A program made the translations under genes and the position numbers. Shown here one piece after another: positions 4,251 through 48,361 of a stretch of DNA of 64,000 nt (position 1 is its first letter; the number at the start of each line of letters is the position of its first letter). The notes under the pieces are model-generated. The model was not told the DNA's origin. It did no database searches and saw only the letters and a list, made by a program, of their open reading frames with translations. The DNA is from Oscillospiraceae bacterium (GTDB lineage: Bacteria > Bacillota > Clostridia > Oscillospirales > CAG-272). The stretch is from assembly GCA_015064025.1 (NCBI GenBank), contig SVSZ01000002.1, positions 186 to 64,185 of the forward strand, written 5' to 3'.

Positions 4251-4289
4251 AAAGAGAACTTTTGTCTACCAAAAGTTCTCTTTTTGTTT
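4251..4289 (+). terminator. Intrinsic terminator after the tRNA pair
   Basis: Stem aaagagaactttt / aaaagttctcttt with loop gtctacc, followed by a T-run. Confidence 0.8.
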
Positions 4290-4291
4290 AT

Positions 4292-4483
4292 CCAAGCCGC
4301 AGGCTTGGCATATCATCACGACGCAGTCGTGTATATCATCAGCCCCTTTGGGGCTGTATCTCATCACGCGCCAGCGTGCATCCTCCTGCGACTTGATGAT
4401 ATACAACACTTCGTGTTGGTGATATACAATGCTTCGCATTGATGATATACACGCCTTACGGCGTGATTGGGACGCGAGGATGC
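4292..4483. repeat. Array of seven short variable-stem hairpins separated by a conserved 8-nt AT-rich spacer (4 forward units, 3 inverted units)
   Basis: Hairpins at 4292-4308, 4317-4331, 4340-4356, 4365-4378, 4404-4418, 4427-4441 and 4450-4465. All have the form CA-N4/5-loop-N4/5-TG. Spacers on the left are c/tatatcat and tatctcat; spacers on the right are the reverse complement, a/gtgatata. The 8-bp inverted repeat gcatcctc (4378-4385) / gaggatgc (4476-4483) brackets the right half. Confidence 0.75.
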
Positions 4484-4541
4484 GGAAATCACTTGGATTA
4501 GTTTATGAAACATAGGATAATATACTTAAAGAGGTAGTATT

Positions 4542-4889
4542 GTGGCTAAAAATTATTTACTGGTATATTCGGAGCAACTTGCAACCAATATAGAATTGCT
4601 TTGTCAAAATATAAAAGCTCCTTCCAACACTCTTTTTCAAATTCGTAAAAGTTCAAGTAGTGTCTATGCGAATATCCGTGAAGCCAATTACGGACAAAGC
4701 AAAGCAGATATGCTTTCAAAGTTTGAAATAGCACTAAAGGAATGCAGCGAAACGGAAGGTTGGTTGCAGTTATTATTCAATACGAATATCATAGACGAAG
4801 CAGCTTATAAGAATGATAGAAATCTTTGTGGGCGCATCAGACGAATGCTGATTGCAAGCTGTAAAACTTTGAAAGATCATGCAAAATAA
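4542..4889 (+). CDS. Four-helix-bundle protein (23S rRNA intervening-sequence protein / Avd-like family)
   Basis: 115-aa ORF with a GTG start after AAAGAGG. Family-typical motifs are ANIREANYGQSK..D...KFEIALKECSETEGWLQL. The segment is visibly AT-rich compared with its neighbours. Confidence 0.7.
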   Translation: MAKNYLLVYSEQLATNIELLCQNIKAPSNTLFQIRKSSSSVYANIREANYGQSKADMLSKFEIALKECSETEGWLQLLFNTNIIDEAAYKNDRNLCGRIRRMLIASCKTLKDHAK

Positions 4890-4965
4890 AAAAGTTATAT
4901 CTTTCATGTGGCAAACTCTTTTTTTCGCCCCTCAATTTTTGACCTTTTATCCGCAATCCCGCAGC

Positions 4966-5004
4966 AAAAACGCACTTTTGTCTACCGACAAAGGTGCGTT
5001 TTTT
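4966..5004. terminator. Bidirectional intrinsic terminator between convergent genes
   Basis: A-run, stem cgcacttttgtc / gacaaaggtgcg with a 4-nt loop, then a T-run. Confidence 0.75.
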
Positions 5005-5076
5005 GAATGACGCTTGCTGTCACGCAAATGATGACGGCTTCGCCACATTTTATGGCAAGCATCAAGCAAGAAGCTG

Positions 5077-5973
5077 TCAAGAGATTTTTTTCCTCTTTAT
5101 ATTTGAGATCCATATCCCACCGCTGATAAGCAAGAAAGCAACAAGATACTGTATCCTCCATATATTCTCGCCCAGGAGGATCGCCCCGAAGACACAAGCG
5201 AATACAGGCTCGGCAAACTTAATGATAAAGAGCCCGGACAGCTCTCCGTTTTTAACGATACCGAACCATATGCAGTAGCTGACGATGGATGCGGCACAGA
5301 TATACACCATGATCCAAAGAGACGCGTCCCAAGCAAACCGTACATTCCCTCCCATAACCAATCCGACAATCAGCAGAACGACACCGCCGAAAAGCTGAGA
5401 TATTCCCGTGGAGGTGATGGGAGAGACCTTATCAAACACCTTTTTACTGATCACGTTGGAAAAGACGGTACAAAAGGAGGCACAGAGAATCAAAAGATCT
5501 CCGATGGAAAATGAAAATCCGTCCGCACTGATATTCAGCGCGATGATTCCGAGAAAGCCTACCAGCGCGGCAAGGATCTTTTGGGCGGTCGGCTTATCCT
5601 CTTTGATGAAGATAAAGGAAAAGCAAACGTAAAAGAGCACACCGATCTGCTTGACAAGCGCAGTTTTGGAGCTGTCGGTCACTTCAAGTCCCATGTAGGT
5701 AAAGCCGTAATGCAGAATGATCGCGAAGACGCCGGACAGCAAAATAGGAACAAGAGAATGTTTGACAGGACGGTAGGATCCCCTATCCCCGATCGCGCTG
5801 AAGATGCAAATAATACCGCCGCAAATCACAAAACGGATTCCGGCAAACAGGAGAATATCGGCGGTGCCTTCCACCGCATATGCCGAAAAACCAAGCTTAA
5901 CCATAGGAAAAAGCGTCCCCCACAGAAGCATGGTCAACAGCGCGAGCCAAATCGTTTTAATTTGATTCATCAC
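5077..5973 (-). CDS. DMT (EamA) family transporter
   Basis: 298 aa with about 10 hydrophobic segments. The N-terminus LLWGTLFPMVK and the two-repeat organisation are typical of EamA. Confidence 0.85.
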   Translation of the reverse strand: MMNQIKTIWLALLTMLLWGTLFPMVKLGFSAYAVEGTADILLFAGIRFVICGGIICIFSAIGDRGSYRPVKHSLVPILLSGVFAIILHYGFTYMGLEVTDSSKTALVKQIGVLFYVCFSFIFIKEDKPTAQKILAALVGFLGIIALNISADGFSFSIGDLLILCASFCTVFSNVISKKVFDKVSPITSTGISQLFGGVVLLIVGLVMGGNVRFAWDASLWIMVYICAASIVSYCIWFGIVKNGELSGLFIIKFAEPVFACVFGAILLGENIWRIQYLVAFLLISGGIWISNIKRKKIS

Positions 5974-30209: not shown

Positions 30210-31925
30210 ATGAAGACTCAAAAAAATTATTCCTCCGAGGTATATCCCGATCTGCGCCATCTTTACCGTGCCAGCGTGGAGCAATACCGCGACCGTATTC
30301 TCTTCCGTCAGAAGGGAGACGGTGAATACAGAGACGTCACCTACCGCAAATTCGGCGAGGACGTGGACGCCCTCGGCACCGAGCTTTGCGCACGCGGTCT
30401 GATGGGCGCGCACGTCATGCTCGTCGGTGAAAACTGCTACGCGTGGGTCACCTCGTACCTTTGCGTGGCATGCGGCGTGGGGGTCATCGTCCCCGCTGAC
30501 AAGGACGCCTCCCCCGAGCAGCTTGCAAGGATCGCAGAACAGGCAGACGTCACGGCGGTCATCTGCTCCTCTGCTAGTCTGGAAAAGCTTTCGCTCCTGC
30601 CTGCGGGCATCGGGCGCATCCTCTTTGACGAGCTTCCCACCTTGATCGAGCTTGGAAACGATCGCATCCTCACGGGAGACCGCACCTATCTTGATGCGGA
30701 GATCGACGAGGACGAGCTGCGCGTGCTGATCTTCACCTCAGGCATCACGGGAGATCCCAAGGGTGTTATGCTGTCTCACAAAAACATCTGCTTCGGGCTC
30801 GCGGAGATCTGTAAAATGATCAAAATTACGGGAAACGACCGCTTCCTCTCGGTCCTCCCGCTTCACCATACCTACGAATGCACCTTCGGCTTCCTCTGCC
30901 CCATGTACCGCGGTGCCACCGTCATCTTTGCAGAGGGCGTGCGTCACATCGCGCAGAGCATGCGCGAAACACAGCCCACCGTCTTTCTTTCGGTTCCGCT
31001 TCTCGTCGAAACGCTTTACGAAAAGCTGTGGGAGGCATTTGAAAAGCGCGGTGAAGCGAAAAAGGTGCGCCGTCTGATCGCCCTTTCCAATATTCCGCAG
31101 GACGATGCCTCGCGCACAGCGCTGAAAAGGCGTATGCTTTCAAAGGTCCTGCGCATCTTCGGCGGCAATCTGCGCATGATCATCACGGCAGGCTACGCGG
31201 CAGATCCCGAGGTGCTCAAGGGCTACCGCGATCTCGGCATTCACGTGCTCCACGGCTATGCACTCACCGAATGCACCCCTCTGGCGGCACTCAACCGAGA
31301 CAACGCCTTCCGTGACGCCTCCGCAGGGCTTTCGCTTCCCAACACCCTGCTTGATATTTACGACGTCCAGCCCGACGGAACGGGAGAGATCCGCTTCAAG
31401 GGAAAAAATCTGATGCTTGGCTATTATAAAGAAGAGGCTCTGACCGAAAAGGTCATCCGCGGCGGCTGGTTCTACACGGGCGACCTCGGTTATATCGACA
31501 AAAACGGCTTCCTCTATATCACGGGACGCAAAAAGAACGTCATTGTGGGTGCAGGCGGCAGAAACGTGTACCCGGAGGAGCTCGAGGGGCTGCTCGTCCG
31601 TGCGCCTTTTGTCGACGAAGCCCTTGTCGTGGGCTATCCCAACGAAGAGACACACAGCTACGACGTGGTTGCCGTGATCTACCCATCCCTGCACGAAATG
31701 GAAGAGACATATGGCAAAAACTTCGCAAAAAGCCAGCTCGACTTTGAAATGAAGCGCTCCATTGCAGATCTCAATTCCCGTCTGGAGCCTCACAAGCGGA
31801 TCACGGGCTACGTATTGCGCCGTGAGCCCTTCGCAAAAAACTCCTCCCGCAAGATCATCCGCGCAGGCGTTGCAGAGGCTGCATATGATGACTATCTCGC
31901 AACCAAGAAGAAGCAGAAAAAATAA
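30210..31925 (+). CDS. AMP-dependent acyl-CoA synthetase (long-chain fatty-acid-CoA ligase-like)
   Basis: 571 aa with the AMP-binding motifs FTSGITGDPKGV, YALTE and TGDLGYIDKNGFLYITGRKK. Confidence 0.85.
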   Translation: MKTQKNYSSEVYPDLRHLYRASVEQYRDRILFRQKGDGEYRDVTYRKFGEDVDALGTELCARGLMGAHVMLVGENCYAWVTSYLCVACGVGVIVPADKDASPEQLARIAEQADVTAVICSSASLEKLSLLPAGIGRILFDELPTLIELGNDRILTGDRTYLDAEIDEDELRVLIFTSGITGDPKGVMLSHKNICFGLAEICKMIKITGNDRFLSVLPLHHTYECTFGFLCPMYRGATVIFAEGVRHIAQSMRETQPTVFLSVPLLVETLYEKLWEAFEKRGEAKKVRRLIALSNIPQDDASRTALKRRMLSKVLRIFGGNLRMIITAGYAADPEVLKGYRDLGIHVLHGYALTECTPLAALNRDNAFRDASAGLSLPNTLLDIYDVQPDGTGEIRFKGKNLMLGYYKEEALTEKVIRGGWFYTGDLGYIDKNGFLYITGRKKNVIVGAGGRNVYPEELEGLLVRAPFVDEALVVGYPNEETHSYDVVAVIYPSLHEMEETYGKNFAKSQLDFEMKRSIADLNSRLEPHKRITGYVLRREPFAKNSSRKIIRAGVAEAAYDDYLATKKKQKK

Positions 31926-32024: not shown

Positions 32025-32513
32025 TTAAAGCTTATTTTTTTCAGGCGTCCTTTCCATGTGGCGTGCCTTCGCCGCATCAAGAAGTGCTTGCTCCTCATCG
32101 TTCTCGGCGATCACGGGCGGGATAGCGCGCTTTTCCTTCTCACTCTCATCGAGAGCCACAAGGATAAAATGCGCATCGGCGATCAGCTCCCGCTCCCCGT
32201 CAAGGCGCTCGACGTAAGCATTGACCAGCACCTCCATAGAGGTGTGTCCGGTTCTGACCACCTGTCCGTGCACGACCATTGTTTCATTGGAAAAGGCGGG
32301 GCGCAGAAAGCGAAGCTCCTCCACGCACGCCGTTGTAACGGGACCCTTGGCGTATCTTCTCGCACTCACCGCGGCAACCTCGTCCATCCACGCCATCAGA
32401 TGTCCTCCGAAGAGTCTCCCTGCGCCGTTGACGTTCTCCTGCCGCAAGATCTGCACAAATTCCGCAAAGGACTCCGAGGTCCCTCTTCCCACAAGCTCTT
32501 TCTTTTCTTCCAT
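32025..32513 (-). CDS. Acyl-CoA thioesterase (hotdog fold)
   Basis: Start at ATG 32513 after AAGGAGG. Contains GRLFGGHLMAWMDEVAAVSARRYA...VTTACVEELRFLRP. It is the last gene of the T-box operon. Confidence 0.8.
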   Translation of the reverse strand: MEEKKELVGRGTSESFAEFVQILRQENVNGAGRLFGGHLMAWMDEVAAVSARRYAKGPVTTACVEELRFLRPAFSNETMVVHGQVVRTGHTSMEVLVNAYVERLDGERELIADAHFILVALDESEKEKRAIPPVIAENDEEQALLDAAKARHMERTPEKNKL

Positions 32514-32538
32514 TTGAAGCGCCTCCTTTGTCAGCGCA

Positions 32539-32961
32539 TCAGATCTCCGACATATCCGCCTCGGTAAAGCCGTGACGGCGAAGGATCTCCTCTGCCGCGT
32601 CAAGCTCCTCTGCCTGGATGATCATGAATGCCTTACCCGTAGTCTTTCCCACGTAAGCATACATATATTCCACGCTGATACCGCTCTCTGCAAGAACTCT
32701 CAACACTCCCAGAGTTCCACCGGGGGTGTCATCCATTGTCAGAGCTAACACGTTGGTCACGCGGACAACGATGCCCTCCTCGTTGAGCACTCTCTTGCCT
32801 TCCTCGGGCTTATCCACGATGAGACGAAGGATACCGAACTCGGAGGTATCCGCCAGGGAAAGCGCGCGGATGTTGACGTTGTTCCTTGCAAGAACGTCTG
32901 CCGCTGCACAGATACGTCCCTTTTTGTTTTCCAAAAATACGGAAAGCTGCTTTGTGATCAT
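32539..32961 (-). CDS. ACT domain-containing protein
   Basis: 140 aa starting at ATG 32961 after GAGGAGG. It begins MITKQLSVFLENKKGRICAAADVLARNNVNIRALSLADTSEFGILRLIV and shows a tandem ACT-like pattern. This is the typical partner of PaaK-type ligases. Confidence 0.8.
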   Translation of the reverse strand: MITKQLSVFLENKKGRICAAADVLARNNVNIRALSLADTSEFGILRLIVDKPEEGKRVLNEEGIVVRVTNVLALTMDDTPGGTLGVLRVLAESGISVEYMYAYVGKTTGKAFMIIQAEELDAAEEILRRHGFTEADMSEI

Positions 32962-32974
32962 AATTTCTACCTCC

Positions 32975-34285
32975 TCAGATCTTTCCCTTTCGGTTGTCGA
33001 TAACGCGCTTTGCTTTTCCCTCACTGCGCACGATCGACTTGGGGTTGACAAGGTGCACCTTTGCGCTGATGCCGAGCATCGCTCGAAGCTGCTCCGTGAT
33101 ATTCTTTTCAAGCTTTTCCATCTCCTTGATGTTATCGGAGAAGAAGACTTCACTCATTTCCACGTTGATATCAAAGGTGTCTACGTTGTTGACACGGTCC
33201 ACAACGATCTGATAGTTGGGGGTGATCCGGTCACCGCTGACCTTAAGGAGCACCTCCTCGATCTGCGACGGGAAGACGTTGACACCGCGGATGATCAGCA
33301 TATCGTCCGTGCGTCCGTCGGGCTTCGCCATACGGATGTGCGTGCGACCGCACTTGCAGGGCTCTGCATTGAGCACGCAGATGTCACGCGTGCGATAGCG
33401 GATCACGGGGAATGCTTCCTTGGTAAGAGAGGTGAAGACAAGCTCGCCGGGCGTTCCTGCGGGAAGCACCTCCTCGGTCTCGGGATCGATGATCTCGACG
33501 GCAAAGTGATCCTCCCATACGTGCATGCCCGCCTGCTCCATGCATTCGCAGGAAACACCGGGACCCAGCACCTCGGAAAGTCCGTAGATATCGTATGCCT
33601 TCAGTCCGAGCTTTTCCTCGATCTGCGCGCGCATGTTCTCCGACCAGGGCTCGGCACCGAAAACGCCGATGCGGAGCTTGAGCTGATCCTTCACACCAAG
33701 GCGCTCGACCTCCTCACCCATGTACATTGCGTAAGAGGGGGTGCAGCAGAGCACGGTCGCGCCAAAATCCACCATGGTCTGGATCTGGTTGGCAGTGTTC
33801 CCCGAGGAGATCGGGATCACCGTAGCGCCCAGCTTCGCAGCGCCGCCGTGAAGACCGAAGCCACCCGTGAAGAGGCCGTAGCCGAAGGCGACCTGAACGA
33901 TGTCCCCGCTTGTGACGCCGAGAGCAGCCAGCATACGTGCCACGCACTCATCCCACATGTCGATGTCCTTTTGCGTGTAGCCGACAACGATCCTCTTACC
34001 GGTCGTACCCGAAGAGGCGTGCACGCGCACGACGTCCTTCATGGGGACTGCGAAAAGTCCGTAAGGATAGTAATCGCGCAGGTCCTTTTTGTAAGAGAAC
34101 GGAAGCTTCGGAAGATCCTCGATTCCGTGAATATCGTCGGGGGTCAGCCCCAATTCCTTCATACGGTTGCGGAAGCATTCCACGTTCTCGTAGGAACGGC
34201 GCACCGTGTCCAAAAGTCTCTCGCTCTGAAGCTTTTTCAGCTCCTCGCGAGGCATACATTCCATGGTTTCATTCAGAAAGCTCAT
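32975..34285 (-). CDS. paaK: Phenylacetate-CoA ligase family protein (arylacetate-CoA ligase)
   Basis: Start at ATG 34285 after AGAGGA. Contains VHASSGTTGKRIVVGYTQKDIDMW and CTPSYAMYMGEE, with a PaaK-type C-terminal domain. Confidence 0.85.
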   Translation of the reverse strand: MSFLNETMECMPREELKKLQSERLLDTVRRSYENVECFRNRMKELGLTPDDIHGIEDLPKLPFSYKKDLRDYYPYGLFAVPMKDVVRVHASSGTTGKRIVVGYTQKDIDMWDECVARMLAALGVTSGDIVQVAFGYGLFTGGFGLHGGAAKLGATVIPISSGNTANQIQTMVDFGATVLCCTPSYAMYMGEEVERLGVKDQLKLRIGVFGAEPWSENMRAQIEEKLGLKAYDIYGLSEVLGPGVSCECMEQAGMHVWEDHFAVEIIDPETEEVLPAGTPGELVFTSLTKEAFPVIRYRTRDICVLNAEPCKCGRTHIRMAKPDGRTDDMLIIRGVNVFPSQIEEVLLKVSGDRITPNYQIVVDRVNNVDTFDINVEMSEVFFSDNIKEMEKLEKNITEQLRAMLGISAKVHLVNPKSIVRSEGKAKRVIDNRKGKI

Positions 34286-34335
34286 TGTTTTATCCTCTTT
34301 GTATTTCGTAGAATCGATAACCGAAACCGCCTCGG

Positions 34336-34911
34336 TCAAAGCTTATATCCAAGGTCAAACGCCGCAAGGTTTACCTCAAGGAACTTTGCGGGCACCGTCG
34401 CCTTGATCGTTTCGATCCATTCCTCGTAGGGAATCGCGGTCTGCTTTGCCATCACGCCGATGAGAACGACGTTGACCGCCTTGATGTTCCCCGCCTCCTT
34501 GGCAAGGGAAAGCGCGTCCAGCGCGGTCAGATCCACGCACGCGGCAAGCTTTTCCTCAATGTCTGAGGGATATTCCATAGCACCTGTGATGACGGGCATG
34601 GGATTGATGCGCTGTGCGTTGACGATCATCTTACCGCCCTTTTTGAGATAAGGAAGTGCTCTGTAAGCCTCCAGAAGCTCAAAGGCGAGAATGATGTCAG
34701 CCTCCCCCTTGTCAATGATGGGAGAATGCACGGAGTCTCCGTATTTTACGTAGGTCACAACGCTTCCGCCGCGCTGGCTCATGCCGTGCACCTCGGAGAC
34801 CTTTACGTCGTACCCTTGACGGATCACAACGTTTCCGAGAATACGGCTGGCAAGCAGTGTCCCCTGACCGCCGACACCGACGATCATAATATTGGTCGTT
34901 TTTGCACTCAT
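34336..34911 (-). CDS. iorB: Indolepyruvate (arylpyruvate) ferredoxin oxidoreductase subunit beta
   Basis: Start at ATG 34911, one nt after the iorA stop. It begins MSAKTTNIMIVGVGGQGTLLASRILG. Confidence 0.9.
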   Translation of the reverse strand: MSAKTTNIMIVGVGGQGTLLASRILGNVVIRQGYDVKVSEVHGMSQRGGSVVTYVKYGDSVHSPIIDKGEADIILAFELLEAYRALPYLKKGGKMIVNAQRINPMPVITGAMEYPSDIEEKLAACVDLTALDALSLAKEAGNIKAVNVVLIGVMAKQTAIPYEEWIETIKATVPAKFLEVNLAAFDLGYKL

Positions 34912-34912
34912 A

Positions 34913-36670
34913 TCAGTTCCCCTCCTTCTTCTCGATCGCACCGAAGGGGCAAACGCCCACACAAAGTCCGCATCCGTTGCACTGGGTGGGATCGATGCGC
35001 ACCGCTCCGCTCTCTGCGTCCAGACTGATCGCGGGACAGCCGAGCTTCATGCAAAGCTTGCACTTGCGGCACTTCTCGCTCACCTCGCACACACCCGAAT
35101 ATTTGACACTCTTGAGCAGTGCGCAGGGACGCTGTGCGATGATCACGGAAACGTCGTCACGCGCGGTCTCTTCCTTGACGACCTTCTCAAAATTCTTGAC
35201 GTCAAAGGGATCTGCGACCGTTACGTGCTCGATGCCAAGACCCGCACAAAGCTTGATCAGATCCACCTGTCGGGTCGCCTCGCCGCGGATGGTCTTTCCC
35301 GTGGTGGGGTTTTCCTGATGTCCCGTCATACCCGTGATGGAGTTATCAAGGATGATGACCGTATTGATGCCCTTGTTATAAACGATGTCGGCAAGCCCCG
35401 TGATGCCCGAATGCATAAAGGTGGAGTCACCGATGACCGAAACCAGCTTGTGCGCAAAGTCCGCACCCTTGACCTTTGCCATGCCGTGTGCCGCGCTGAC
35501 CGACGCCCCCATACAAATGGTGGTATCCACAGAGGAAAGAGGTGCCACGGCACCGAGCGTATAACAGCCGATGTCGCCCGACACGGTCAGTCCCAGCTTT
35601 TTGAGAACGTAGAAGGTGCCTCTGTGCGGGCATCCTGCGCACATCACGGGAGGACGCGCGGGAAGCGCATCTGCGGGGGTCATGCTCTCGGGAGCCTCTT
35701 CGCCCATCACCGCTTTCGCGATCATCGCAGGGGTATATTCTCCAAGGAGGGTGAAGAGCTCCTTGCCCATGACCTCGAGCCCGAGGGCACGGCAGGTATC
35801 CTCAAGGAAAGGATCCAGCTCCTCGATGACGTAGAGCTTTTTGTTCTTTGCGGCAAAGGAGCGAAGCAGCTCATCGGGACACGGCCAGACGATACCGAGC
35901 TTGAGATAGTTGACACGCTCACCCAGCGCTTCCTTTGCATACTGATAGGAGATGCCCGAGGTGATGACACCGATCTCACTTCCGTTGTCTTCAACCGTGT
36001 TGAAGGGACAGTCTGCCGCATACGCCGCGATCTTTTTCGTGCGCTCCTCGACAAATACGTGTCTGCCCTTCGCCATCGCGGGCATCATCACGTGCTTCGG
36101 GATGTTCTTTTCGTAATCCTTGACGGGATGTACCTCGCGCTCGCCGACCTCGACAAGGCTTTGCGAGTGAGACACGCGAGTGGAAAGACGCAAAAGCACG
36201 GGAGTGTCGAATTGCTCGGAAAGATCAAACGCCGCCTTAGTGTAGGCAAGACATTCCGCCGAATCCGAGGGCTCCAGCATCATGATCTTCGCCGCCCGTG
36301 CGTAATGACGGGAATCCTGCTCATTCTGCGAAGAATGCATACCGGGATCGTCTGCGACGCAGAAGACCGCGCCACCCGTCACGCCGATGTAGCTATCGGT
36401 AAAGAGGGGGTCCGCCATCACGTTAAGACCCACGTGCTTGCAGCATGTCATAGCTCTGCCGCCCGCGATCGCCGCACCGATGGCAACCTCAGCCGCGACC
36501 TTTTCATTGGGCGCCCATTCCACAAACACCTCGTCTGCGGGGTAGGTCGCCATGCACTCCGTGATCTCCGTACTGGGAGTCCCCGGGTAGGAGGAAACGA
36601 GGTGCACACCCGCCTCATAGGCACCCTGTGCCACGGCGGCGTTTCCAAGTAACAGTTTTTTCATATTCAT
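34913..36670 (-). CDS. iorA: Indolepyruvate (arylpyruvate) ferredoxin oxidoreductase subunit alpha
   Basis: 585 aa with a TPP-binding region (GDSTFMHSG) and C-terminal 2x[4Fe-4S] motifs (CxxCxxCxxxCP). An alternative ATG at 36664 has better RBS spacing. Confidence 0.92.
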   Translation of the reverse strand: MNMKKLLLGNAAVAQGAYEAGVHLVSSYPGTPSTEITECMATYPADEVFVEWAPNEKVAAEVAIGAAIAGGRAMTCCKHVGLNVMADPLFTDSYIGVTGGAVFCVADDPGMHSSQNEQDSRHYARAAKIMMLEPSDSAECLAYTKAAFDLSEQFDTPVLLRLSTRVSHSQSLVEVGEREVHPVKDYEKNIPKHVMMPAMAKGRHVFVEERTKKIAAYAADCPFNTVEDNGSEIGVITSGISYQYAKEALGERVNYLKLGIVWPCPDELLRSFAAKNKKLYVIEELDPFLEDTCRALGLEVMGKELFTLLGEYTPAMIAKAVMGEEAPESMTPADALPARPPVMCAGCPHRGTFYVLKKLGLTVSGDIGCYTLGAVAPLSSVDTTICMGASVSAAHGMAKVKGADFAHKLVSVIGDSTFMHSGITGLADIVYNKGINTVIILDNSITGMTGHQENPTTGKTIRGEATRQVDLIKLCAGLGIEHVTVADPFDVKNFEKVVKEETARDDVSVIIAQRPCALLKSVKYSGVCEVSEKCRKCKLCMKLGCPAISLDAESGAVRIDPTQCNGCGLCVGVCPFGAIEKKEGN

Positions 36671-36681
36671 ACATTCCTTTC

Positions 36682-38319
36682 TTACTTCACTTCCACCTGC
36701 CGGGCAACAAGGCTTTCACCGCAATAAAGACGCCTGAGCTTCGGCTTTTCGATCTTGCCCGTGGGATTTCTCGGCACCTCCGCAAAGATGATGCGTCTGG
36801 GGCGCTTGTATCTCGGAAGCGGTGCGCAGAAGCGCTCCAGCTCCTCCTCCGTAAGAGAGGCACCCTCCTTGACCTCAACGATCGCCGCGGCGATCTCGCC
36901 AAGTCTCGGGTCGGGAAGCCCGATCACCGCCACGTCCTTGACGGCGTCATGCTTACGGATAAAGTCCTCGATCTGTACGGGATATAGGTTCTCACCGCCC
37001 GTGATGATAACGTCCTTTTTACGGTCAACGAGGAAGATAAAGCCGTCCTCGTCCTCCATTGCCATGTCTCCCGTAGAGAGCCATTCGCCGTGCAGGATCT
37101 CATCGGTCGCCTTCTTGTCCTTGTAGTAGCACTTCATCACGCCGGGGCCCTTGACGCAAAGCTCACCGACCTCGCCGCGAGGCACGGTCTTTCCTTGCTC
37201 GTCCACGATGCAGACCTGCCAGCCGTAGCCCGCGCGACCGATCGCGCCGACCTTATGTACGTTCTCGACGCCCAGGTGTACGCAGCCGGGACCGATGGAC
37301 TCGGACAGACCGTAGTTGGTATCGTACTGATGCTTCGGAAAGACCTTGAGCCAACGGCGGATCAGAGAAGGAGGTACGGGCTGAGCGCCGATGTGCATCA
37401 GTCTCCATGCGTCAAGCTCATATTCGTCAAGCTTCAACTCTCCCCTGTCGATCGCGTCCAGAATATCCTGCGCCCACGGAACCAGGAGCCACACAATGGA
37501 GCAGCGCTCGTCCGAGGCGGCACGGAGGATCCATTCGGGCTTGGTGCCCTTGAGAAGGACTGCACGGCTTCCGCTCATCAAAGAGCCGAACCAATGCATC
37601 TTTGCACCCGTGTGGTAAAGCGGCGGGATGCAGAGGAAAACGTCGTCGTGCGACTGACCGTGGTGGTTGTGCTCCACACGCGCGGAATGGATCAGACTGC
37701 GGTGCGCGTGCAGGATCGCCTTGGGAAATCCCGTTGTACCCGAGGAGAAATAGATCGCCGCGTCATCCTCCTCACCGATGGTAATGATGGGCTCCTCCGT
37801 GGTACAGTAGGTGATCATTTTATCATAGCTGTCGGCAAAATAAGGGCAATCCTCACCGACGTAGAACATATGCTTAATGTCGGAAAGTCTGTCACAGATC
37901 TGCTCCATACGTCCCACGAACTCGGGGCCGAAAACAAGCGTGGAGCAATCCGCCTTTTCAAGGCAGTATTTGATCTCGTCCGCCACGTAACGGTAGTTGA
38001 GCGGCACGACGATCGCCCCCGCCTTGAGGACACCGAAATAGATGGGAAGCCACTCGATGGAATTCATCAGAAGAATGGCAACCTTGTCCCCACGGCGGCA
38101 TCCGCGCGTGAGCAAAAGATTGGCAAAGCGGTTCGCCTTGTCGTTGAACTCACGCCACGTGAGCGTGCGTCGGAAGGGCTTCCCCGGCTCGGGCTGCATG
38201 AGTGAATAATCCTTCCACGTAATGCGACTTTCCGGCTCGAAGCAGGGATTGATCTCTACGAGCGCCGTCTCGTCCCCGTAAAGGGAGGCATTCTGGTTGA
38301 GCAGATCGATAATGGTCAT
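36682..38319 (-). CDS. AMP-dependent synthetase/ligase (acyl- or aryl-CoA ligase), first gene of the T-box operon
   Basis: Start at ATG 38319 after AAGGAGAAG. AMP-binding motifs are YFSSGTTGFPKAILH, YGLSE and TGDMAMEDEDGFIFLVDRKKD. Confidence 0.85.
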   Translation of the reverse strand: MTIIDLLNQNASLYGDETALVEINPCFEPESRITWKDYSLMQPEPGKPFRRTLTWREFNDKANRFANLLLTRGCRRGDKVAILLMNSIEWLPIYFGVLKAGAIVVPLNYRYVADEIKYCLEKADCSTLVFGPEFVGRMEQICDRLSDIKHMFYVGEDCPYFADSYDKMITYCTTEEPIITIGEEDDAAIYFSSGTTGFPKAILHAHRSLIHSARVEHNHHGQSHDDVFLCIPPLYHTGAKMHWFGSLMSGSRAVLLKGTKPEWILRAASDERCSIVWLLVPWAQDILDAIDRGELKLDEYELDAWRLMHIGAQPVPPSLIRRWLKVFPKHQYDTNYGLSESIGPGCVHLGVENVHKVGAIGRAGYGWQVCIVDEQGKTVPRGEVGELCVKGPGVMKCYYKDKKATDEILHGEWLSTGDMAMEDEDGFIFLVDRKKDVIITGGENLYPVQIEDFIRKHDAVKDVAVIGLPDPRLGEIAAAIVEVKEGASLTEEELERFCAPLPRYKRPRRIIFAEVPRNPTGKIEKPKLRRLYCGESLVARQVEVK

Positions 38320-38345
38320 AGTCTTCTCCTTTTGATCCGATGAAC

Positions 38346-38614
38346 AAAAAACGTCCTCTGCGATGTACGCAGAGGACGAAATATATCGCGGTACCACCTC
38401 TGTTGCCGCGCCTTGCGCGACCACTCAAAGGGCTGTAACGGGCGCCCCGCCGCAGCCTCGGCATTTCTTCCTCGGTGCGGAACTCACGAACTGTATTCGG
38501 CATTTCCCTGCTGCTGTCTTCCACCGCCCGACAGCTCTCTGAAAGCGCTGAAAATGCTTACTTGCTTTCGGTCATCGTCTTTCTTTTGTGCCACAGGCAC
38601 GTTTTCTGAAATAT
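38346..38614 (-). promoter_or_regulatory. T-box riboswitch leader with Tyr (UAC) specifier and terminator/antiterminator
   Basis: Read on the minus strand:
- K-turn CGAUGAC
- specifier-loop 5' side with AGUA
- upper stem GCAUUU/AAAUGC
- AGAGAG bulge (complement of 38535-38540)
- distal loop GGCGGUGGAA
- specifier-loop 3' side C-GAA-UAC-A (codon = complement of 38493-38495)
- T-box motif GAGGUGGUACCGCG (complement of 38387-38400)
- terminator cgtcctctgcg-uacau-cgcagaggacg plus U6 (38346-38378), which competes with the AGAGG/CCUCU antiterminator pairing. Confidence 0.9.
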
Positions 38615-38620
38615 ACGTCA

Positions 38621-38649
38621 ATTATAACACCCGCGTTTTTATTTGTCAA
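38621..38649 (-). promoter_or_regulatory. Sigma-A promoter driving the T-box leader
   Basis: On the minus strand: TTGACA (38649-38644), 17 nt, TATAAT (38626-38621). Confidence 0.75.
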
Positions 38650-42367: not shown

Positions 42368-45300
42368 TCAGGAGCGCTTCCAGTAATAACTACTGTACGT
42401 ACTCTTCAAATGCGTTGCCGCAGTCCCTGTATTGGAAAGATCGGTACTCGGAATGCTTGTTCCGCTTGTGGCGTTCGAGAAACTTGCATACCACCAGCCG
42501 TTGGGATTTTCAAAGGTCACGCTTGTCAGCCCCTCACAACCGGAGAACGCAGATGAACCGATACTTGTCACACTCGCGGGTATCTTGATATCTGTAAGTC
42601 CTGTGCAATTCTTGAATGCAGAAGCTCCAATGCTCGTCACGCTTTCTGGAATCTTGATGCTTGTAAGATTTGTGCAATTATAAAATGCATAATCTCCAAT
42701 GATCGTTACACTACCATCCGTTGGTATTACAGACGTTTCACATCCCCAAATCAAGGTTCTGCTTTCAATGGCAATCAAACAATTTCCTTGCACCTTGTAC
42801 TTGGAATTTCCTGTTGTAACAGTAATACTCACAAGCTTTGTACAACCGGAGAACGCAGAAGAATCGATGCTTATCACACTTTCGGGAATCGAGATACTTG
42901 TAAGTCCTGTGCAACCGAAGAACGCAAACTTTCCTATGCTCGTCACGCTTGTGGGAATCTCAATGCTTGTCAGCCCCGTACAACCATAGAATGCATAGGA
43001 AGCGATGCTTGATCCTCCTGTGATCACAACAGTTTTCAAAGAAGCCGGAACACGCTGGGAATGATTAGAATAGGACGATGCTCCAAAGATGTATCCAAAA
43101 TGTGTATTTGAACTTCCGTTTCTGCTCGCACCGACGAATGGCAACGTCATGTTTGTAATCCCTGTGCAACCGAAGAACGCAGACTTTCCTATGCTCGTCA
43201 CACTCGCGGGTATCTCGATACTTATAACCCCTGTGCAATCTCCAAATGCATAAGAACCTATGTTTTCCAACCGACTATTTGCCGGGACGCTTACGCCTGT
43301 AAGCCCTGTGCAACCGTAGAATGCATAATCCTCAATGCTCGTCACATCTGCCGGAATGCTGAGCGTTGTCACAAGCTCATTGTTCACATAAAGTTTGCCT
43401 GCATAATACAACGGATTTGACTCTCTGGAATAAAATTTAATTTTGCACCATGCCGCAAGGTCCTCAATGTACACTGCTGTAAGTCCTGTGCAACCTTTGA
43501 ATGCGAGAGAACCGATGTCTCGTAAGGAGGTTCCTAACGTCACCTCTGACAGCTTTGTGCAGTAAGCAAACGTCCAATTGCCCAAAGTTGTCACGCTGTC
43601 GGGAATCTTAATGCTTGTAAGCCCTGTGCAATCCATGAACAAACCATCAGCAATACCTACCGTATCTGCTCGAAAAACAACGCTTGCTGCAGAGTTGTCA
43701 AACCCAACCGCCCATTTTTCAACGTAAGAAACACCGTTTTCGATTTGAATCAAATGAGTACAACCGTAGAACGCCGAAGACCCGATACTTGTCACGCTGT
43801 CGGGAATCGTGATGTTTGTAAGCCCCGTGCAACCGGAGAATGCAGAATAACCGATGCTTGTCACACTTGTGGGAATCGTGATGCTTGTAAGCCCCGTGCA
43901 ACCGGAGAACGCAGCGTCACCAATGCTCGTCACACTCGTAGGGATTCTAATAGTAGTAAGTCCCCTGCAATTGTAAAATGCATAAGAATCAATGTTCGCT
44001 CCCCCTGTGATCACCACTGTTTTCAAAGAAGCGGGAACATACGTGAAATTTTTATCATAATTATCCAGCGGTGCGCCGAAGAGAAAGCCAAAATTGTATG
44101 AGACAAACGGTATCGTTATACGTTCAAGCTTCGTGCAACTGGTGAGTAAAGAACCAATTTGCGTCAAACCTGCGGAAAGCTTGATGCTTGTAAGCCCCGT
44201 GCAACCGGAGAACGCAGAAGAATCAATGTCCGTCACACTGTCGGGAATCGAGATACTTGTAAGCCCCGTACAATTTTTGAACGCAAAATAATGTATGTTT
44301 TTTAACCGACTATTTACCGGGAAGCTTATGTCTGTAAGCCCTGTACAACCGTAGAATGCAGAAGATCCAACGCTCGTCACACTCGCAGGTATCTCAATAC
44401 TTGTAAGCCCTGTACAACCATAGAATGTGGAAGAATCAATGCTCGTCACACCCGAAGGAATATCAACGCTGGTAAGTCTACTGCAATTGTAAAACGCACA
44501 ACCACCGATGTTCGTCACGCTGTCGGGGATCTGGATGCTTGTAAGCCTTGTGCAATCCATGAACGCAGAATTGGCAACGCCTACCGTATTCGTCCGCAGA
44601 ATAATGTTTGTTACGTATGTATCACAGTCAATCACCCATTTCTCCACGTAAGAAACACCGTTTTCGATTTGAATCAAATTGGTACAACCGGAGAACGCCG
44701 AAGAGCCGATACTTGTCACACTTGAAGGGATCTCGATGCCGGAAAGCCTCGTACAGCCGGAGAACGCATAAGAACCGATGACTCGTAAGGAGGTTCCTAA
44801 CGTCGCCTCCGACAGCTTTGTGCAATCTGCAAACACATAACTACCCAAAGTTGTCACGCTATCGGGAATCGTGATGCTTGTAAGCCCCGTACAGCCGGAG
44901 AACGCATAAGAACCGATGTCTCGCAAGGAGGTTCCTAACGTCACCTCCGACAGCTTTGTGCAATCTGCAAACGCATAACTACCCAAAGTTGTCACGCTAT
45001 CGGGAATCGTGATGCTTGTAAGTCCCGTACAATCGGAGAACGCATAAGAACCGATGTCTCGTAAGGAGGTTCCTAACGTCACCTCCGACAGCTTTGTGCA
45101 ATCTGCAAACGCATAACTACCCAAAGTTGTCACGCTATCGGGAATCGTGATGCTTGTAAGTCCCGTACAATCGGAGAACGCATAAGAAGCGATGTCTCGC
45201 AAGGAGGTTCCTAACGTCACCTCCGACAGCTTTGTGCAGTATCTAAACGCAGAATCTCCCAAAGTTGTCACGCTGCCGGAAATCTGGATGCTTGTAAGTC

Positions 45301-46972
45301 CCGTACAACCAGAAAATGCATGATTACCGATACCCGTCAAACTCGATGGTATCTCAACATTCGTAAGTCCCGTACAACCTCGGAATGCGTAAGAATTGAT
45401 GTTCTCGACACTTTCCGGAATGATGAGCGACGTAATAAGTGCATCCTCTATATAAAGATTACCAGCATAGTGCAAAGGATTGGAAGTGTTTCCATCGAAT
45501 TCAATTTTGCACCATGCTAAAAGGTCTGTGGCGTGGACGGATGTAAGTCCTGTGCAACCGTAGAACGCACTGTCACCAATGCTCGTCACACTCGAAGGAA
45601 TCTCAACGCTAGTAAGTCCACTGCAATTATAAAACGCACGACCACCGATGTTCGTCCCCCCGGTGATGATCACTGTTTTTAAGGGAACGGGAATGCAATG
45701 GTCATTGGCAGAATATGACGATGCACCGAAAAGATATCCAAAATGCGTATTGGTGCTTCCATCCAAATTCGCACCCACAAATGGGATTGTCATGTGCTCA
45801 AGCCCTGTGCAACCATTGAAGGCAGAATTGCCCAAGGTTGTCACGCTATCGGGAATCTTAATGCTTGTAAGTCCCGTGCAGCCGTAGAACACATAAGAAC
45901 CGATGACCGTCAAACTCGATGGCATCTCGACATTTGTAAGTTCCTTGCAATCGTAGAACGCATAAGAACCAATGCTCGCCCCCCCGGTGATGACCACCGT
46001 CTTCAAGGAAGGCGGAACACACTCGGCATGTTCGGAATACGACGATGCACCGAAGATATATCCAAAATGCGTATTGGTGCTTCCATCTAAACTTGCACCT
46101 ACAAATGGGATCGTCAGGTGCTCAAGCCCCGTGCAACCATTGAAGGCAGAATTGCCCAAGGTTGTCACGCTGTCCGGGACGGTCACACTTTTCAACGTCG
46201 TGCAATTTTCAAAGGCACCGATTTGAATCTCTTTCACAGGAAGTTCTTCATGCTTGGAAGGGATGACAAGATCTTCATCCGTGCAACTGCCAATGCCGGC
46301 GACAATATAATATTCTCCATCATGCAACACGTACCGTAGCCCTTCGCCGGCTAACCGCTCGCACCATTTGCATTTGTCATTATCGTACACGTGACCGGTG
46401 ATTGCAATTTCTTTATACGTGCTATAATCACACCCATCACGTTGACAGGTTACATATGCATTCCAACCAACGGCTTTGCACGTTGCTTCCCGAGCCGCAT
46501 GCTGCTTTTCGTCATGCCCAAGGGCGCCGATAGATTGTGTTTCCACAACCTTGCCGCAGGAACACTTGAATTGCTTCTTCCCCTCTTCGGTACAGGTGGC
46601 CTCTTTCACCGTCACCCACTCCATGCCTTGGCACGTATGCTCTTCTCTGTCATCCTCCTCGGAATCACCGTCCTCCGGATCACAATTCTCGGAATCACCG
46701 TCGACAGGATTGCTTTGTGCGGAATCACTGTTCTCCGGATCATTATTCTCGAAATCATCGTCGACAGGATTGCTTTGTGTGGAATCACCTTGCACGGGCT
46801 CGCTTCCCTCGCCACCCGGGCGGTTGTCATTTTCATCCTTTGCGGATTGCTCATCGCCGCCCGGCAGCTGTCCTTTCCCTGTCTGTTCACCGCCGCAAGC
46901 GGTGAAACCGAAAGTTGCCAGAAGCAAAATTGCAACAAGCAGACATACGATTGCGTATTTCATCTTCTTCAT
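42368..46972 (-). CDS. Giant BspA-type leucine-rich-repeat surface lipoprotein (1534 aa)
   Basis: From N- to C-terminus:
- lipoprotein signal MKKMKYAIVCLLVAILLLATFGFTAC
- an acidic D/E/N/S repeat region
- a Cys-rich module
- more than 50 LRR units (IP.SVT.IG..AF..CTGLTS)
- a C-terminal WYAS..NATSGTSIPST..SNTGTAATHLK tail. Confidence 0.85.
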   Translation of the reverse strand: MKKMKYAIVCLLVAILLLATFGFTACGGEQTGKGQLPGGDEQSAKDENDNRPGGEGSEPVQGDSTQSNPVDDDFENNDPENSDSAQSNPVDGDSENCDPEDGDSEEDDREEHTCQGMEWVTVKEATCTEEGKKQFKCSCGKVVETQSIGALGHDEKQHAAREATCKAVGWNAYVTCQRDGCDYSTYKEIAITGHVYDNDKCKWCERLAGEGLRYVLHDGEYYIVAGIGSCTDEDLVIPSKHEELPVKEIQIGAFENCTTLKSVTVPDSVTTLGNSAFNGCTGLEHLTIPFVGASLDGSTNTHFGYIFGASSYSEHAECVPPSLKTVVITGGASIGSYAFYDCKELTNVEMPSSLTVIGSYVFYGCTGLTSIKIPDSVTTLGNSAFNGCTGLEHMTIPFVGANLDGSTNTHFGYLFGASSYSANDHCIPVPLKTVIITGGTNIGGRAFYNCSGLTSVEIPSSVTSIGDSAFYGCTGLTSVHATDLLAWCKIEFDGNTSNPLHYAGNLYIEDALITSLIIPESVENINSYAFRGCTGLTNVEIPSSLTGIGNHAFSGCTGLTSIQISGSVTTLGDSAFRYCTKLSEVTLGTSLRDIASYAFSDCTGLTSITIPDSVTTLGSYAFADCTKLSEVTLGTSLRDIGSYAFSDCTGLTSITIPDSVTTLGSYAFADCTKLSEVTLGTSLRDIGSYAFSGCTGLTSITIPDSVTTLGSYVFADCTKLSEATLGTSLRVIGSYAFSGCTRLSGIEIPSSVTSIGSSAFSGCTNLIQIENGVSYVEKWVIDCDTYVTNIILRTNTVGVANSAFMDCTRLTSIQIPDSVTNIGGCAFYNCSRLTSVDIPSGVTSIDSSTFYGCTGLTSIEIPASVTSVGSSAFYGCTGLTDISFPVNSRLKNIHYFAFKNCTGLTSISIPDSVTDIDSSAFSGCTGLTSIKLSAGLTQIGSLLTSCTKLERITIPFVSYNFGFLFGAPLDNYDKNFTYVPASLKTVVITGGANIDSYAFYNCRGLTTIRIPTSVTSIGDAAFSGCTGLTSITIPTSVTSIGYSAFSGCTGLTNITIPDSVTSIGSSAFYGCTHLIQIENGVSYVEKWAVGFDNSAASVVFRADTVGIADGLFMDCTGLTSIKIPDSVTTLGNWTFAYCTKLSEVTLGTSLRDIGSLAFKGCTGLTAVYIEDLAAWCKIKFYSRESNPLYYAGKLYVNNELVTTLSIPADVTSIEDYAFYGCTGLTGVSVPANSRLENIGSYAFGDCTGVISIEIPASVTSIGKSAFFGCTGITNMTLPFVGASRNGSSNTHFGYIFGASSYSNHSQRVPASLKTVVITGGSSIASYAFYGCTGLTSIEIPTSVTSIGKFAFFGCTGLTSISIPESVISIDSSAFSGCTKLVSITVTTGNSKYKVQGNCLIAIESRTLIWGCETSVIPTDGSVTIIGDYAFYNCTNLTSIKIPESVTSIGASAFKNCTGLTDIKIPASVTSIGSSAFSGCEGLTSVTFENPNGWWYASFSNATSGTSIPSTDLSNTGTAATHLKSTYSSYYWKRS
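44759..45310 (-). repeat. Four tandem 138-bp (46-aa, two-LRR) near-identical repeats inside the giant LRR gene
   Basis: The motif ggagaacgcataagaa recurs at 44759, 44897, 45035 and 45173, an exact 138-bp period. The encoded unit is VTLGTSLRDIGSYAFSDCTGLTSITIPDSVTTLGSYAFADCTKLSE. Confidence 0.9.
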
Positions 46973-47019: not shown

Positions 47020-47223
47020 TCACGAGCGTTTCCGGTAATAACTCCAGTACGTATTCTTCAAATGCGTTGCCGCAGTCCCTGTATTGGAAAGCTCGGTACT
47101 CGGGATGCTCGTTCCGCTTGTTGCGTTCGAGGAACTTGCATACCAACAGCCGCTGGAAGTTTCAAAGGTCACACTTGGCAGGTTCTCGCAACCGGAGAAC
47201 GCATGTCTGCCGATGCGCATCAC
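47020..47223 (-). pseudogene. Orphan 3'-terminal fragment of a BspA-type LRR gene, a paralogue of 42368..42560
   Basis: The 67-aa ORF (..IGRHAFSGCENLPSVTFETSSGCWYASSSNATSGTSIPSTELSNTGTAATHLKNTYWSYYRKRS) is collinear with the last ~62 codons of the giant gene. By manual alignment it is about 90% nt identical with no indels. It has no RBS, and homology ends abruptly at its 5' side. Confidence 0.65.
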
Positions 47224-47305
47224 ACTGTTACCTTTGCTCTTTTTACTGCGTCGAATGACATATTCGGTGCAGTTTTCAACACTGATTCATTATATATTAC
47301 AGCCC

Positions 47306-48283
47306 CTACCATTTCGTCTTCTTTTTGAGCACCTCGTGGATCTCCAGAAAGCTTTGATGACGGCTTTTGGGGATCTCGCCCGATCTCACGGCACCGAGGA
47401 TGGCACAGCCCTCCTCCTTGGTGTGAGAGCACTTTGTATAGCGGCACTCGCCGATGTAAGGGCGAAACTCACGGAAATTGAGCGGCAGATCGTCCTTGTC
47501 GAAAAAATCGAACCGCTCAAAATCCAGCATGGTAAAGCCGGGCGTGTCGGCAATATAGCCGTGATCCTCCCCATCGGGAAGCGGATACAGCTCCACGTGG
47601 CGCGTGGTATTTTTTCCGCGCCCGATGCGCTTGCTGATCTCCCCCGTCGTAAGGGAAAGATGCGGGAAAAGGCGGTTGAGAAGCGTGGATTTTCCAACCC
47701 CCGACGCCCCCGAAAAAGCGGCAGTCCTGCCGCCTCCCAGCGTTTCCTTCATATAGGTGATGAGCGCCTCGCTTCCGTCCGCAAGCTCAGCCCCCGTAGA
47801 AAGCACACAAAAGCCTGCGCGACGATAGATGTCGCGAAGACGCGCGGCATTCTCCGCCGAAAGATCGCATTTGGTAAGCACCACGACGGGCTCGATACGG
47901 TTAAATTCGGCAATGGCGATCAGTTTATCCACAGTGGAGAGGATCGGATCGGGAGATGCGACGGCAACCGTCACAAACAGCACGTCCAGATTTGCCATCG
48001 GCGGACGGATGAGAGAATTCTTGCGTTCCTCGATCTCCTCGATGGAAAGACCTCTGCCGTCCTCTGCGGGAAGGATGCTCCCGTCCCGTTCGGAAAAAGC
48101 AGTGCCGTCATAGCTCACGCGAACGAGATCTCCCACCAAAAGAGAGCCTGCGCGATGCAGACTTCCGCGCGCGCGTCCCGTAACGGTCATCCCGTCAAGA
48201 GGACTCCCGTCTTCTTTTTTGTCCAAGCGCACGGTGAAAAGTCCGCCGTTGCTTTTGATCACTCTTCCCCGTCCTTCGTACAT
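47306..48283 (-). CDS. rsgA: Ribosome small-subunit-dependent GTPase A
   Basis: Start trimmed to ATG 48283 after AAGAGGAAAG. Contains GASGVGKSTLLNRL and the Zn motif C..YTKCSHTKEEGC. Confidence 0.9.
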   Translation of the reverse strand: MYEGRGRVIKSNGGLFTVRLDKKEDGSPLDGMTVTGRARGSLHRAGSLLVGDLVRVSYDGTAFSERDGSILPAEDGRGLSIEEIEERKNSLIRPPMANLDVLFVTVAVASPDPILSTVDKLIAIAEFNRIEPVVVLTKCDLSAENAARLRDIYRRAGFCVLSTGAELADGSEALITYMKETLGGGRTAAFSGASGVGKSTLLNRLFPHLSLTTGEISKRIGRGKNTTRHVELYPLPDGEDHGYIADTPGFTMLDFERFDFFDKDDLPLNFREFRPYIGECRYTKCSHTKEEGCAILGAVRSGEIPKSRHQSFLEIHEVLKKKTKW

Positions 48284-48361
48284 AAGCTTTCCTCTTTTCA
48301 TTTCATGAGAATGTCCGCCGCCCCTTCACGCCCACTCCGCGCATCGTTCCACCTTGCACCC

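Follow-up and report, generated by a model that had tools for sequence, protein, structure and literature searches.

A tyrosine T-box stands before a CoA-ligase and indolepyruvate oxidoreductase operon that may salvage 4-hydroxyphenylacetate in gut and rumen Clostridia

T-boxes raise gene expression when their cognate tRNA is uncharged, that is, during amino-acid starvation. In a 64,000-nucleotide (nt) stretch of DNA from an Oscillospiraceae bacterium (GenBank assembly GCA_015064025.1, contig SVSZ01000002.1, positions 186 to 64,185; the whole stretch is hereafter called the window), a T-box leader with a tyrosine specifier stands before six minus-strand genes. These include iorA and iorB, which encode the two subunits of an indolepyruvate:ferredoxin oxidoreductase (IOR), and the genes for two ligases, lig1 and a PaaK-like protein. 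IorAB together with PaaK is customarily annotated as catabolic. We propose that this operon probably serves biosynthesis, as a tRNA-Tyr-gated route that would salvage 4-hydroxyphenylacetate to tyrosine. The proposal draws on the anatomy of the leader, on the constancy of its specifier among related loci and on the genes that share the transcription unit there. The control region and its predicted effector comprise the following features.

38621 to 38649, minus strand: sigma-70 promoter, TTGACA-17 nt-TATAAT with a TG extension (12/12 consensus match)
38369 to 38584, minus strand: T-box leader, with Stem I (K-turn, specifier loop, AG bulge and distal loop), Stem II/III region and antiterminator (Rfam RF00230)
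38493 to 38495, minus strand: specifier codon UAC (Tyr) in the context GAA-UAC-A (covariance-model register and sequence reading)
38387 to 38398, minus strand: T-box core GGUGGUACCGCG (alignment and raw sequence)
38346 to 38378, minus strand: intrinsic leader terminator with an 11-base-pair (bp) stem, a 5-nt loop and T6 (consensus scan; it also forms in the minimum-free-energy fold of the leader)
4162 to 4246, plus strand: tRNA-Tyr(GUA) with discriminator A and encoded CCA, the predicted effector (ARAGORN, Rfam and sequence)

An Rfam scan of the whole window (cmscan) returned the T-box leader as the sole cis-regulatory RNA in the 64 kb. The match to RF00230 reaches 118.1 bits (gathering score 93; E 1.7e-25), and the alignment spans model positions 1–219 of 219, untruncated. 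Consistent with the hallmarks listed in an earlier note on this DNA (hereafter the original prediction), each of which recurs at the same position in the RF00230 alignment and in the raw sequence, the covariance-model alignment contains the GA/K-turn of Stem I (CGAUGACC...GUGAG), a specifier loop carrying an AGUA S-turn (AAGUA in the alignment), the AG bulge CAGAGAG, a distal loop of the GGUGGAA type (GGGCGGUGGAAG) and the conserved T-box sequence AGAGGUGGUACCGCG. The register of the model puts UAC, a Tyr codon, at the specifier position, which is the codon that had been read there before. The UGGU bulge at 38396..38393 (−) is complementary to a tRNA 3′ end of A-CCA. The tRNA-Tyr(GUA) of the window ends in CCCCC-A-CCA and, because its discriminator is A, would pair with the U of this bulge, in agreement with the fit noted earlier. 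Its gene forms a pair with that of a tRNA-Thr(UGU) at 4059..4246, 34 kb from the T-box expected to sense tRNA-Tyr.

The promoter assignment also held, with 12 of 12 consensus positions matched in a consensus scan, and the same TTGACA...TG.TATAAT arrangement lies upstream of the orthologous leaders in four related loci (L001, L003, L004 and L011). From the predicted transcription start to the ATG at 38319 the leader measures about 295 nt, which corrects an earlier figure of about 270 nt. The stem of its terminator (38378..38352) has 11 bp, 8 of them G–C pairs, and runs into TTTTTT. The 5′ arm of this stem (CGUCCUCUGCG) overlaps the 3′ arm of the antiterminator, the stretch common to both being CGUCCUCU, and the two folds are therefore mutually exclusive, as the original prediction had it. 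The defining features of RF00230 that can be tested by sequence, namely the score, the Stem I motifs, a UGGN antiterminator and an exclusive terminator, are all found in this leader. Taken together, these data leave us highly confident that 38369..38584 (−) would work as a functional Tyr T-box attenuator.

Downstream of the leader lie six genes, whose starts were set by Shine–Dalgarno sequence and ATG, and a terminator.

36682 to 38319, minus strand: lig1, a 545-amino-acid (aa) AMP-forming acyl-CoA ligase, FadD-like, proposed to be a 4-hydroxyphenylacetate-CoA ligase (PF00501 and PF13193)
34913 to 36670, minus strand: iorA, alpha subunit of indolepyruvate/arylpyruvate:ferredoxin oxidoreductase, with a C-terminal 2x[4Fe-4S] domain (TIGR03336)
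34336 to 34911, minus strand: iorB, beta subunit of IOR (NF005325, PF01558)
32975 to 34285, minus strand: PaaK-like arylacetate-CoA ligase, AMP-forming (TIGR02155 below its cut-off; PDB matches)
32539 to 32961, minus strand: ACT-domain-pair protein, a possible amino-acid-binding regulatory subunit (PF19571 ACT_8, E 8.4e-26; PDB 2f06, E 2e-25)
32025 to 32513, minus strand: hotdog (4HBT) acyl-CoA thioesterase (PF03061)
31968 to 32016, bidirectional: operon-end terminator, A6-hairpin-T6 (sequence read and folded)

The gaps between these genes measure 11, 1, 50, 13 and 25 nt, and none of them contains a terminator-like hairpin with a U-run; both the tight spacing and the domains agree with what the original prediction had described. 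The next terminator is likewise the one that had been named. It is a hairpin of at least 11 bp flanked by A6 and T6 (−42.8 kcal/mol in context), and it is common to the operon and to a convergent gene at 30210..31925 (+). That gene encodes a second AMP-binding acyl-CoA ligase (571 aa, PF00501), which shares only about 29% identity with lig1, in an alignment of the C-terminal part.

IorA (TIGR03336, 707.8 bits against a cut-off of 650.9; domains POR_N, TPP_enzyme_C and Fer4) and IorB (NF005325, 290.8 bits against 230) both exceed their NCBIfam equivalog cut-offs. The earlier call of paaK stands in part: the protein matches solved PaaK structures closely (2y27, PaaK1, E 9.5e-131; 4r1l, deposited as phenylacetate-coenzyme A ligase, E 2.9e-113), but with 550.3 bits it does not reach the TIGR02155 equivalog cut-off of 646.3, and we therefore name it PaaK-like. 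Presumably, both 4r1l and the entry matched by the ACT protein, 2f06, derive from Bacteroides thetaiotaomicron. The two ligases of the operon are AMP-forming members of PF00501. Lig1 falls under every NCBIfam cut-off, and its PDB matches are only generic FadD, feruloyl and coumarate-type ligases, about equally similar to it (the best being FadD13, 3r44, E 3e-71); an assignment of its substrate from PDB or NCBIfam was dropped, as these matches are generic only. We speculate that the PaaK-like ligase may have an amino-acid-sensing partner in the ACT-pair protein, and that the thioesterase, whose matches to YciA and PaaI lie far under their cut-offs, may clear non-productive CoA esters.

Related loci were drawn from two samples. 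An IorA scan with one genome per species gave 80 loci at 68–83% identity, nearly all of them from metagenome-assembled genomes of gut or rumen Clostridia, and a metagenome scan seeded with the IorA of locus L063 gave 80 more. Gene content was taken from tblastn searches with the window proteins, and T-boxes were sought through the T-box core and Stem I motifs in those loci that have at least 350 nt before the first operon gene. Across genome and metagenome loci, lig1-iorA-iorB(-paaK-ACT) is a widely conserved arrangement; 60 of the 80 genome loci share the order lig1-iorA-iorB, and an ACT-pair gene follows paaK in 39. The motif search found a T-box in 41 of 64 lig1-bearing loci (absent in 23), whereas of the 70 iorAB loci that lack lig1 a single one, L063, has it (absent in 69). 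The association between lig1 and the T-box has a Fisher p of 9e-17, which is only indicative, given that the loci are related to one another and include near-duplicates. Rfam confirmed 13 T-boxes of the type that precedes lig1 or a sodium:solute symporter (SSF) in other loci, at 98–131 bits, placed the candidates in L083 and L131 below the gathering score and detected no degenerate T-box in 42 motif-negative loci. Terminators can be seen in those leaders, among the roughly 40 T-box loci, that were read in sequence. Among the orthologous loci the T-box is thus conserved in 41 that bear lig1 and missing from about a third of those with lig1, and it tracks lig1, not paaK.

The units headed by these T-boxes carry further genes. 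In some 20 loci the T-box is followed directly by the gene for an SSF symporter of about 514 aa (PF00474, 199.7 bits) and then by lig1 (after a gap of 35 nt in L022). An Amidohydro_2 gene (PF04909) lies between the symporter and lig1 in three T-box units (L017, 2935..3726; L037, 4558..5349; and L068); these three apart, lig1 takes first or second place behind the T-box throughout the 41 T-box loci. As judged from this gene content, the T-box goes with the FadD-like lig1 and the symporter and not with paaK. The symporter also stands beside lig1 or paaK-iorAB in loci that have no T-box (L019, L027, L056, L066 and L091), and it is therefore linked to the pathway and not to the riboswitch. Neighbour clustering further revealed two families of class I/II aminotransferase attached to the operon in 17 loci, one following ACT in 10 loci and the other following iorB in 7; L072 and L099 have the order T-box(UAC)-lig1-iorA-iorB-aminotransferase, without paaK. 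Of the enzymes that a salvage route would need, the window operon itself encodes the ligases and the IOR, and an aminotransferase gene lies inside the orthologous operon in these 17 related loci. With the symporter and the aminotransferase of the relatives' units, a route from acid through CoA ester and 2-oxoacid to amino acid would be complete.

Only AMP-forming ligases occur in these units; neither Pta/kinase nor ADP-forming ligases, as known from characterised catabolic clusters, were found. The thioesterase is no conserved part of the operon family: outside the window, tblastn located a homologue in L059 alone. Between iorB and paaK, L012 (4745..5425), 8 other genome loci and L083–L087 encode a conserved predicted membrane protein of 226 aa that matches nothing in Pfam or NCBIfam.

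All 39 lig1/SSF-type leaders that were examined have UAC at the specifier position; those of L044 and L047 were read by eye. The bases around it vary: UAC is followed by A in most leaders and by C, G or U in a few, and L015 and a Christensenellaceae-type subgroup (L078, L083 and L084–087) have one extra base between GAA and UAC. In the leaders with the extra base the covariance-model register would give AUA (L015) or UUA (the Christensenellaceae-type subgroup); we take UAC to be the specifier there as well, guided by anchoring on the 3′ helix and by homology. A switch of the specifier between UAC, UUC and UGG among orthologous loci, which the original prediction had put up for checking, did not emerge as systematic at the iorAB loci: UUC was seen only in L063 and L131, and no Trp version was found. 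In L063 a T-box at 2741..2966 (105 bits) lies directly before iorA, without lig1, and its loop reads GAA-A-UUC-C; here we prefer UUC (Phe), anchored on the 3′ helix, to the AUU (Ile) of the covariance-model register. In L131 a T-box-like leader of sub-gathering score (around 4250..4560), with GAAAU-UUC-A and a terminator, precedes a TrpR-like gene and iorAB. These cases are too few and too ambiguous for us to claim a Phe version of the T-box; as read here, both fit a pattern in which the Tyr T-box goes with lig1.

Trp T-boxes near iorAB in two further loci were rejected as parts of the system because they serve neighbouring genes. The one in L018 (12539..12783, GAA-UGG-A) lies before the gene for a 324-aa lipoprotein, and the one in L137 (3217..3460, −) precedes trpE-trpG-trpD.

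Other kinds of control are found at loci without a T-box. A plain promoter and a short leader precede those of Acutalibacteraceae (lig1-iorA-iorB-aminotransferase), and in four of six (L064, L065, L069 and L076) a divergent gene for a two-component response regulator lies upstream of lig1; in L064, for example, it occupies 4445..5125, immediately upstream, and some loci have a histidine kinase too. In 13 metagenome loci (L125, L130, L131 at 4668..4979, L133, L135, L139, L140, L141, L145, L148, L154, L159 and L161) a Trp_repressor-family gene of about 100 aa (PF01371, 71–74 bits) immediately precedes iorA-iorB-paaK-ACT, in the same orientation. It is a further regulator of the amino-acid type that is attached to the iorAB-paaK-ACT enzymes.

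We propose that the window operon works as follows. The anticodon of uncharged tRNA-Tyr(GUA) would pair with the UAC of the specifier loop and its free A-CCA end with the UGGU bulge, which would stabilise the antiterminator and let RNA polymerase read through into lig1-iorA-iorB-paaK-ACT-thioesterase. 4-Hydroxyphenylacetate would then be converted to its CoA ester by an AMP-forming ligase, most likely lig1 because it is lig1 that co-varies with the Tyr T-box. IorAB, with reduced ferredoxin, would reductively carboxylate the ester to 4-hydroxyphenylpyruvate, and an aminotransferase, presumably encoded elsewhere in this genome and inside the operon in several relatives, would yield tyrosine. The SSF symporter, which in many relatives is under the same T-box, is the proposed importer of the acid. 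AMP-forming ligases work towards the CoA ester, and IOR, whose chemistry requires arylacetyl-CoA, is reversible with low-potential ferredoxin. The anabolic direction argued for in the original prediction gains comparative support from the conserved UAC T-box, from the symporter and aminotransferase within the unit and from the exclusive occurrence of AMP-forming ligases; the route itself, that is, the direction of flux, 4-hydroxyphenylacetate as the substrate, the ligase that acts on it and the substrate of the symporter, is what we infer from these comparisons.

Several observations weigh against a salvage of 4-hydroxyphenylacetate to tyrosine. The 23 of 64 lig1-bearing loci that lack a T-box mean that T-box control is lineage-specific, and inside the 64-kb window there is no homologue of the symporter or of the operon-type aminotransferases. 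The presence of a second, PaaK-like ligase suggests that precursors of Phe and Trp are handled too, yet only Tyr is sensed. It is possible, though we think it improbable, that the operon is a general arylacetate salvage system for all three aromatic amino acids, with the charging of tRNA-Tyr as a single proxy signal, a broad IorAB, and lig1 and PaaK together covering 4-hydroxyphenylacetate, phenylacetate and indoleacetate. Two different AMP-forming ligases in one operon would suit such a system, as would the close match of the PaaK-like protein to solved phenylacetate-CoA ligases and the range of characterised IORs, which accept phenyl-, hydroxyphenyl- and indolepyruvate (PMC13285125). However, the T-box follows lig1 and not paaK (1 of 70 for iorAB-paaK-ACT loci without lig1), L072 and L099 combine a Tyr T-box and lig1-iorAB-aminotransferase with no paaK at all, and the UUC-containing loops of L063 and of sub-threshold L131, both without lig1 in the unit, hint that it is the ligase that partitions specificity.

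The substrate given to lig1 in the tyrosine salvage route also counts against that route, being a guess because lig1 is without a characterised close relative and its best matches are generic FadD-type enzymes; so does the relatives' symporter, whose own substrate could be tyrosine, since transporters under T-box control mostly carry the amino acid that the T-box senses (PMC2494555). Both points would be compatible with a T-box that serves something other than the conversion of an arylacetate to Tyr, with lig1 acting on a different acid or with symporter and lig1 working in tyrosine uptake or another Tyr-linked process, and with iorAB-paaK merely co-located or separately expressed. The position of lig1 under every NCBIfam cut-off and its nearly equal similarity to fatty-acid, feruloyl and coumarate ligases leave room for this, but the 11-nt gap between lig1 and iorA has no terminator, the lig1-iorA-iorB order recurs in 60 of the 80 genome loci, the symporter occurs beside lig1 or paaK-iorAB in T-box-less loci as well, and IOR chemistry requires arylacetyl-CoA, so that we regard it as quite unlikely. 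The thioesterase at the end of the window operon could hydrolyse the CoA ester and so provide a catabolic exit. This, and the customary annotation of IorAB and PaaK, would accord with a catabolic or fermentative path from Tyr through 4-hydroxyphenylpyruvate and 4-hydroxyphenylacetyl-CoA to 4-hydroxyphenylacetate, released by the thioesterase, under a T-box that is non-functional or obeys some other logic; an IOR is involved in phenylacetate production by B. thetaiotaomicron, according to work cited in PMC13285125. We give this path very little credence, as tyrosine breakdown induced on uncharged tRNA-Tyr would be self-defeating, the T-box structure is intact across about 40 loci, with terminators visible in the leaders read, the only ligases are AMP-forming, with no Pta/kinase or ADP-forming ligase to conserve ATP, and the thioesterase is confined to the window and L059.

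The founding Tyr (UAC) T-box is the leader of Bacillus subtilis tyrS. The window leader resembles it in its match to RF00230, in UAC placed in a GAA-NNN-A register, in the pairing of a UGGN bulge and in the terminator/antiterminator switch, but it controls a six-gene CoA-ligase/2-oxoacid oxidoreductase operon and not an aminoacyl-tRNA synthetase. In the Bacillus cereus group, Tyr T-boxes control phenylalanine-4-hydroxylase, an alternative Tyr-forming enzyme, and tyrosine biosynthesis (Wels et al. 2008, PMC2494555). As in the window, a Tyr T-box is there coupled to a non-shikimate source of Tyr; the differences are that ring hydroxylation takes the place of the proposed reductive carboxylation of arylacetyl-CoA, and that window-type hosts are strict gut or rumen anaerobes.

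In Methanococcus maripaludis, aryl acids feed aromatic amino-acid synthesis via IOR (Porat et al. 2004, as cited in PMC4162585), and rumen anaerobes turn phenylacetate into Phe (Allison 1965, as cited in PMC7356843). The steps proposed for the window, from aryl acid to CoA ester, through reductive carboxylation by IOR to the arylpyruvate and on to transamination, are those of the M. maripaludis pathway. That pathway is archaeal, is not known to be tRNA-sensed and is without the module of FadD-like lig1 and SSF symporter. In contrast to M. maripaludis, direction in the window operon is deduced from its regulation and not from genetics or labelling. The combination of IOR with an AMP-forming arylacetate ligase is argued to be probably biosynthetic in a 2026 study (PMC13285125), and the Bacteroides cluster in its discussion has, like the window, iorAB beside a PaaK-type AMP-forming ligase and an ACT-pair protein. 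Unlike the window operon, that cluster has no T-box reported in the literature that we searched, and published genetics in B. thetaiotaomicron point towards the production of phenylacetate. Catabolic clusters leading from Tyr to 4-hydroxyphenylacetate carry, according to the same study, either a phosphate acyltransferase and a kinase or ADP-forming ligases. One of them, the HpdDEFG-HpdJ-HpdK cluster of Clostridium scatologenes, shares with the window operon a ferredoxin-dependent oxidoreductase for the interconversion of 4-hydroxyphenylpyruvate and 4-hydroxyphenylacetyl-CoA. The Hpd enzyme, however, is of the four-subunit VOR type, is accompanied by a phosphate acyltransferase and kinase for ATP and is induced by growth on tyrosine, whereas in the window operon the IOR has two subunits, the ligases are AMP-forming and the control is of the starvation type.

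T-boxes have been reported mainly in Firmicutes. We found no publication that links a T-box with an indolepyruvate or ferredoxin oxidoreductase, in a search that did not cover the survey of Vitreschak et al. 2008 (10.1261/rna.819308, PMC2271356), which may list one; the T-box surveys of Wels 2008 and Sun 2013 contain nothing on these oxidoreductases in text or supplements. For T-boxes in combination with paaK or iorA, the one publication retrieved was a Geobacter genome paper (PMC2700814). Its single T-box is the leuA leader, and it lists iorAB-paaK elsewhere, as a tryptophan-related operon whose 5′ sequence is conserved. The original prediction knew of no description of iorAB/paaK as a member of T-box regulons, and in the literature searched, the main 2008 survey excepted, we found no description to the contrary. 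What is new is the T-box link together with the lig1/symporter module and its spread; anabolic IOR is known in methanogens and has been proposed for Bacteroides.

Elsewhere in the window, a 1534-aa open reading frame (ORF) at 42368..46972 (−) is composed of a 69-nt (23-aa) unit repeated about 21 times with divergence and resembles a leucine-rich-repeat surface protein. The 207-nt 3′ end of this ORF (42368..42574) recurs with 86% identity at 47020..47226, beside a second ORF (47020..48301 region).

Phenylacetylglutamine and p-cresol derive from arylacetates, among which are phenylacetate, 4-hydroxyphenylacetate and indoleacetate, and these compounds also act as auxin-like signals. Among regulatory signals a T-box is unusually easy to read, since it turns genes on only when one named amino acid is short, and a Tyr T-box conserved in about 40 loci provides evidence, drawn from sequence alone, for a biosynthetic direction of IOR/PaaK-type clusters. 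It offers a candidate function for an uncharacterised ligase family (lig1) and for a symporter, as well as a molecular candidate for sixty-year-old labelling observations in the rumen, and it brings ferredoxin-dependent 2-oxoacid oxidoreductases into the known reach of T-box regulation. Whether these loci make up a dedicated, hitherto undescribed tRNA-Tyr T-box regulon for tyrosine salvage in uncultured gut and rumen Clostridia, in which an SSF importer, lig1 as a new FadD-like 4-hydroxyphenylacetate-CoA ligase, a reversed IorAB and an aminotransferase act together and the specifier (UAC, rarely UUC) tracks the ligase, we judge to be evenly balanced. If they do, IOR/PaaK loci that microbiome studies count as 'aromatic amino-acid degradation' would in these lineages consume 4-hydroxyphenylacetate, the precursor of p-cresol, and would mediate tyrosine cross-feeding.

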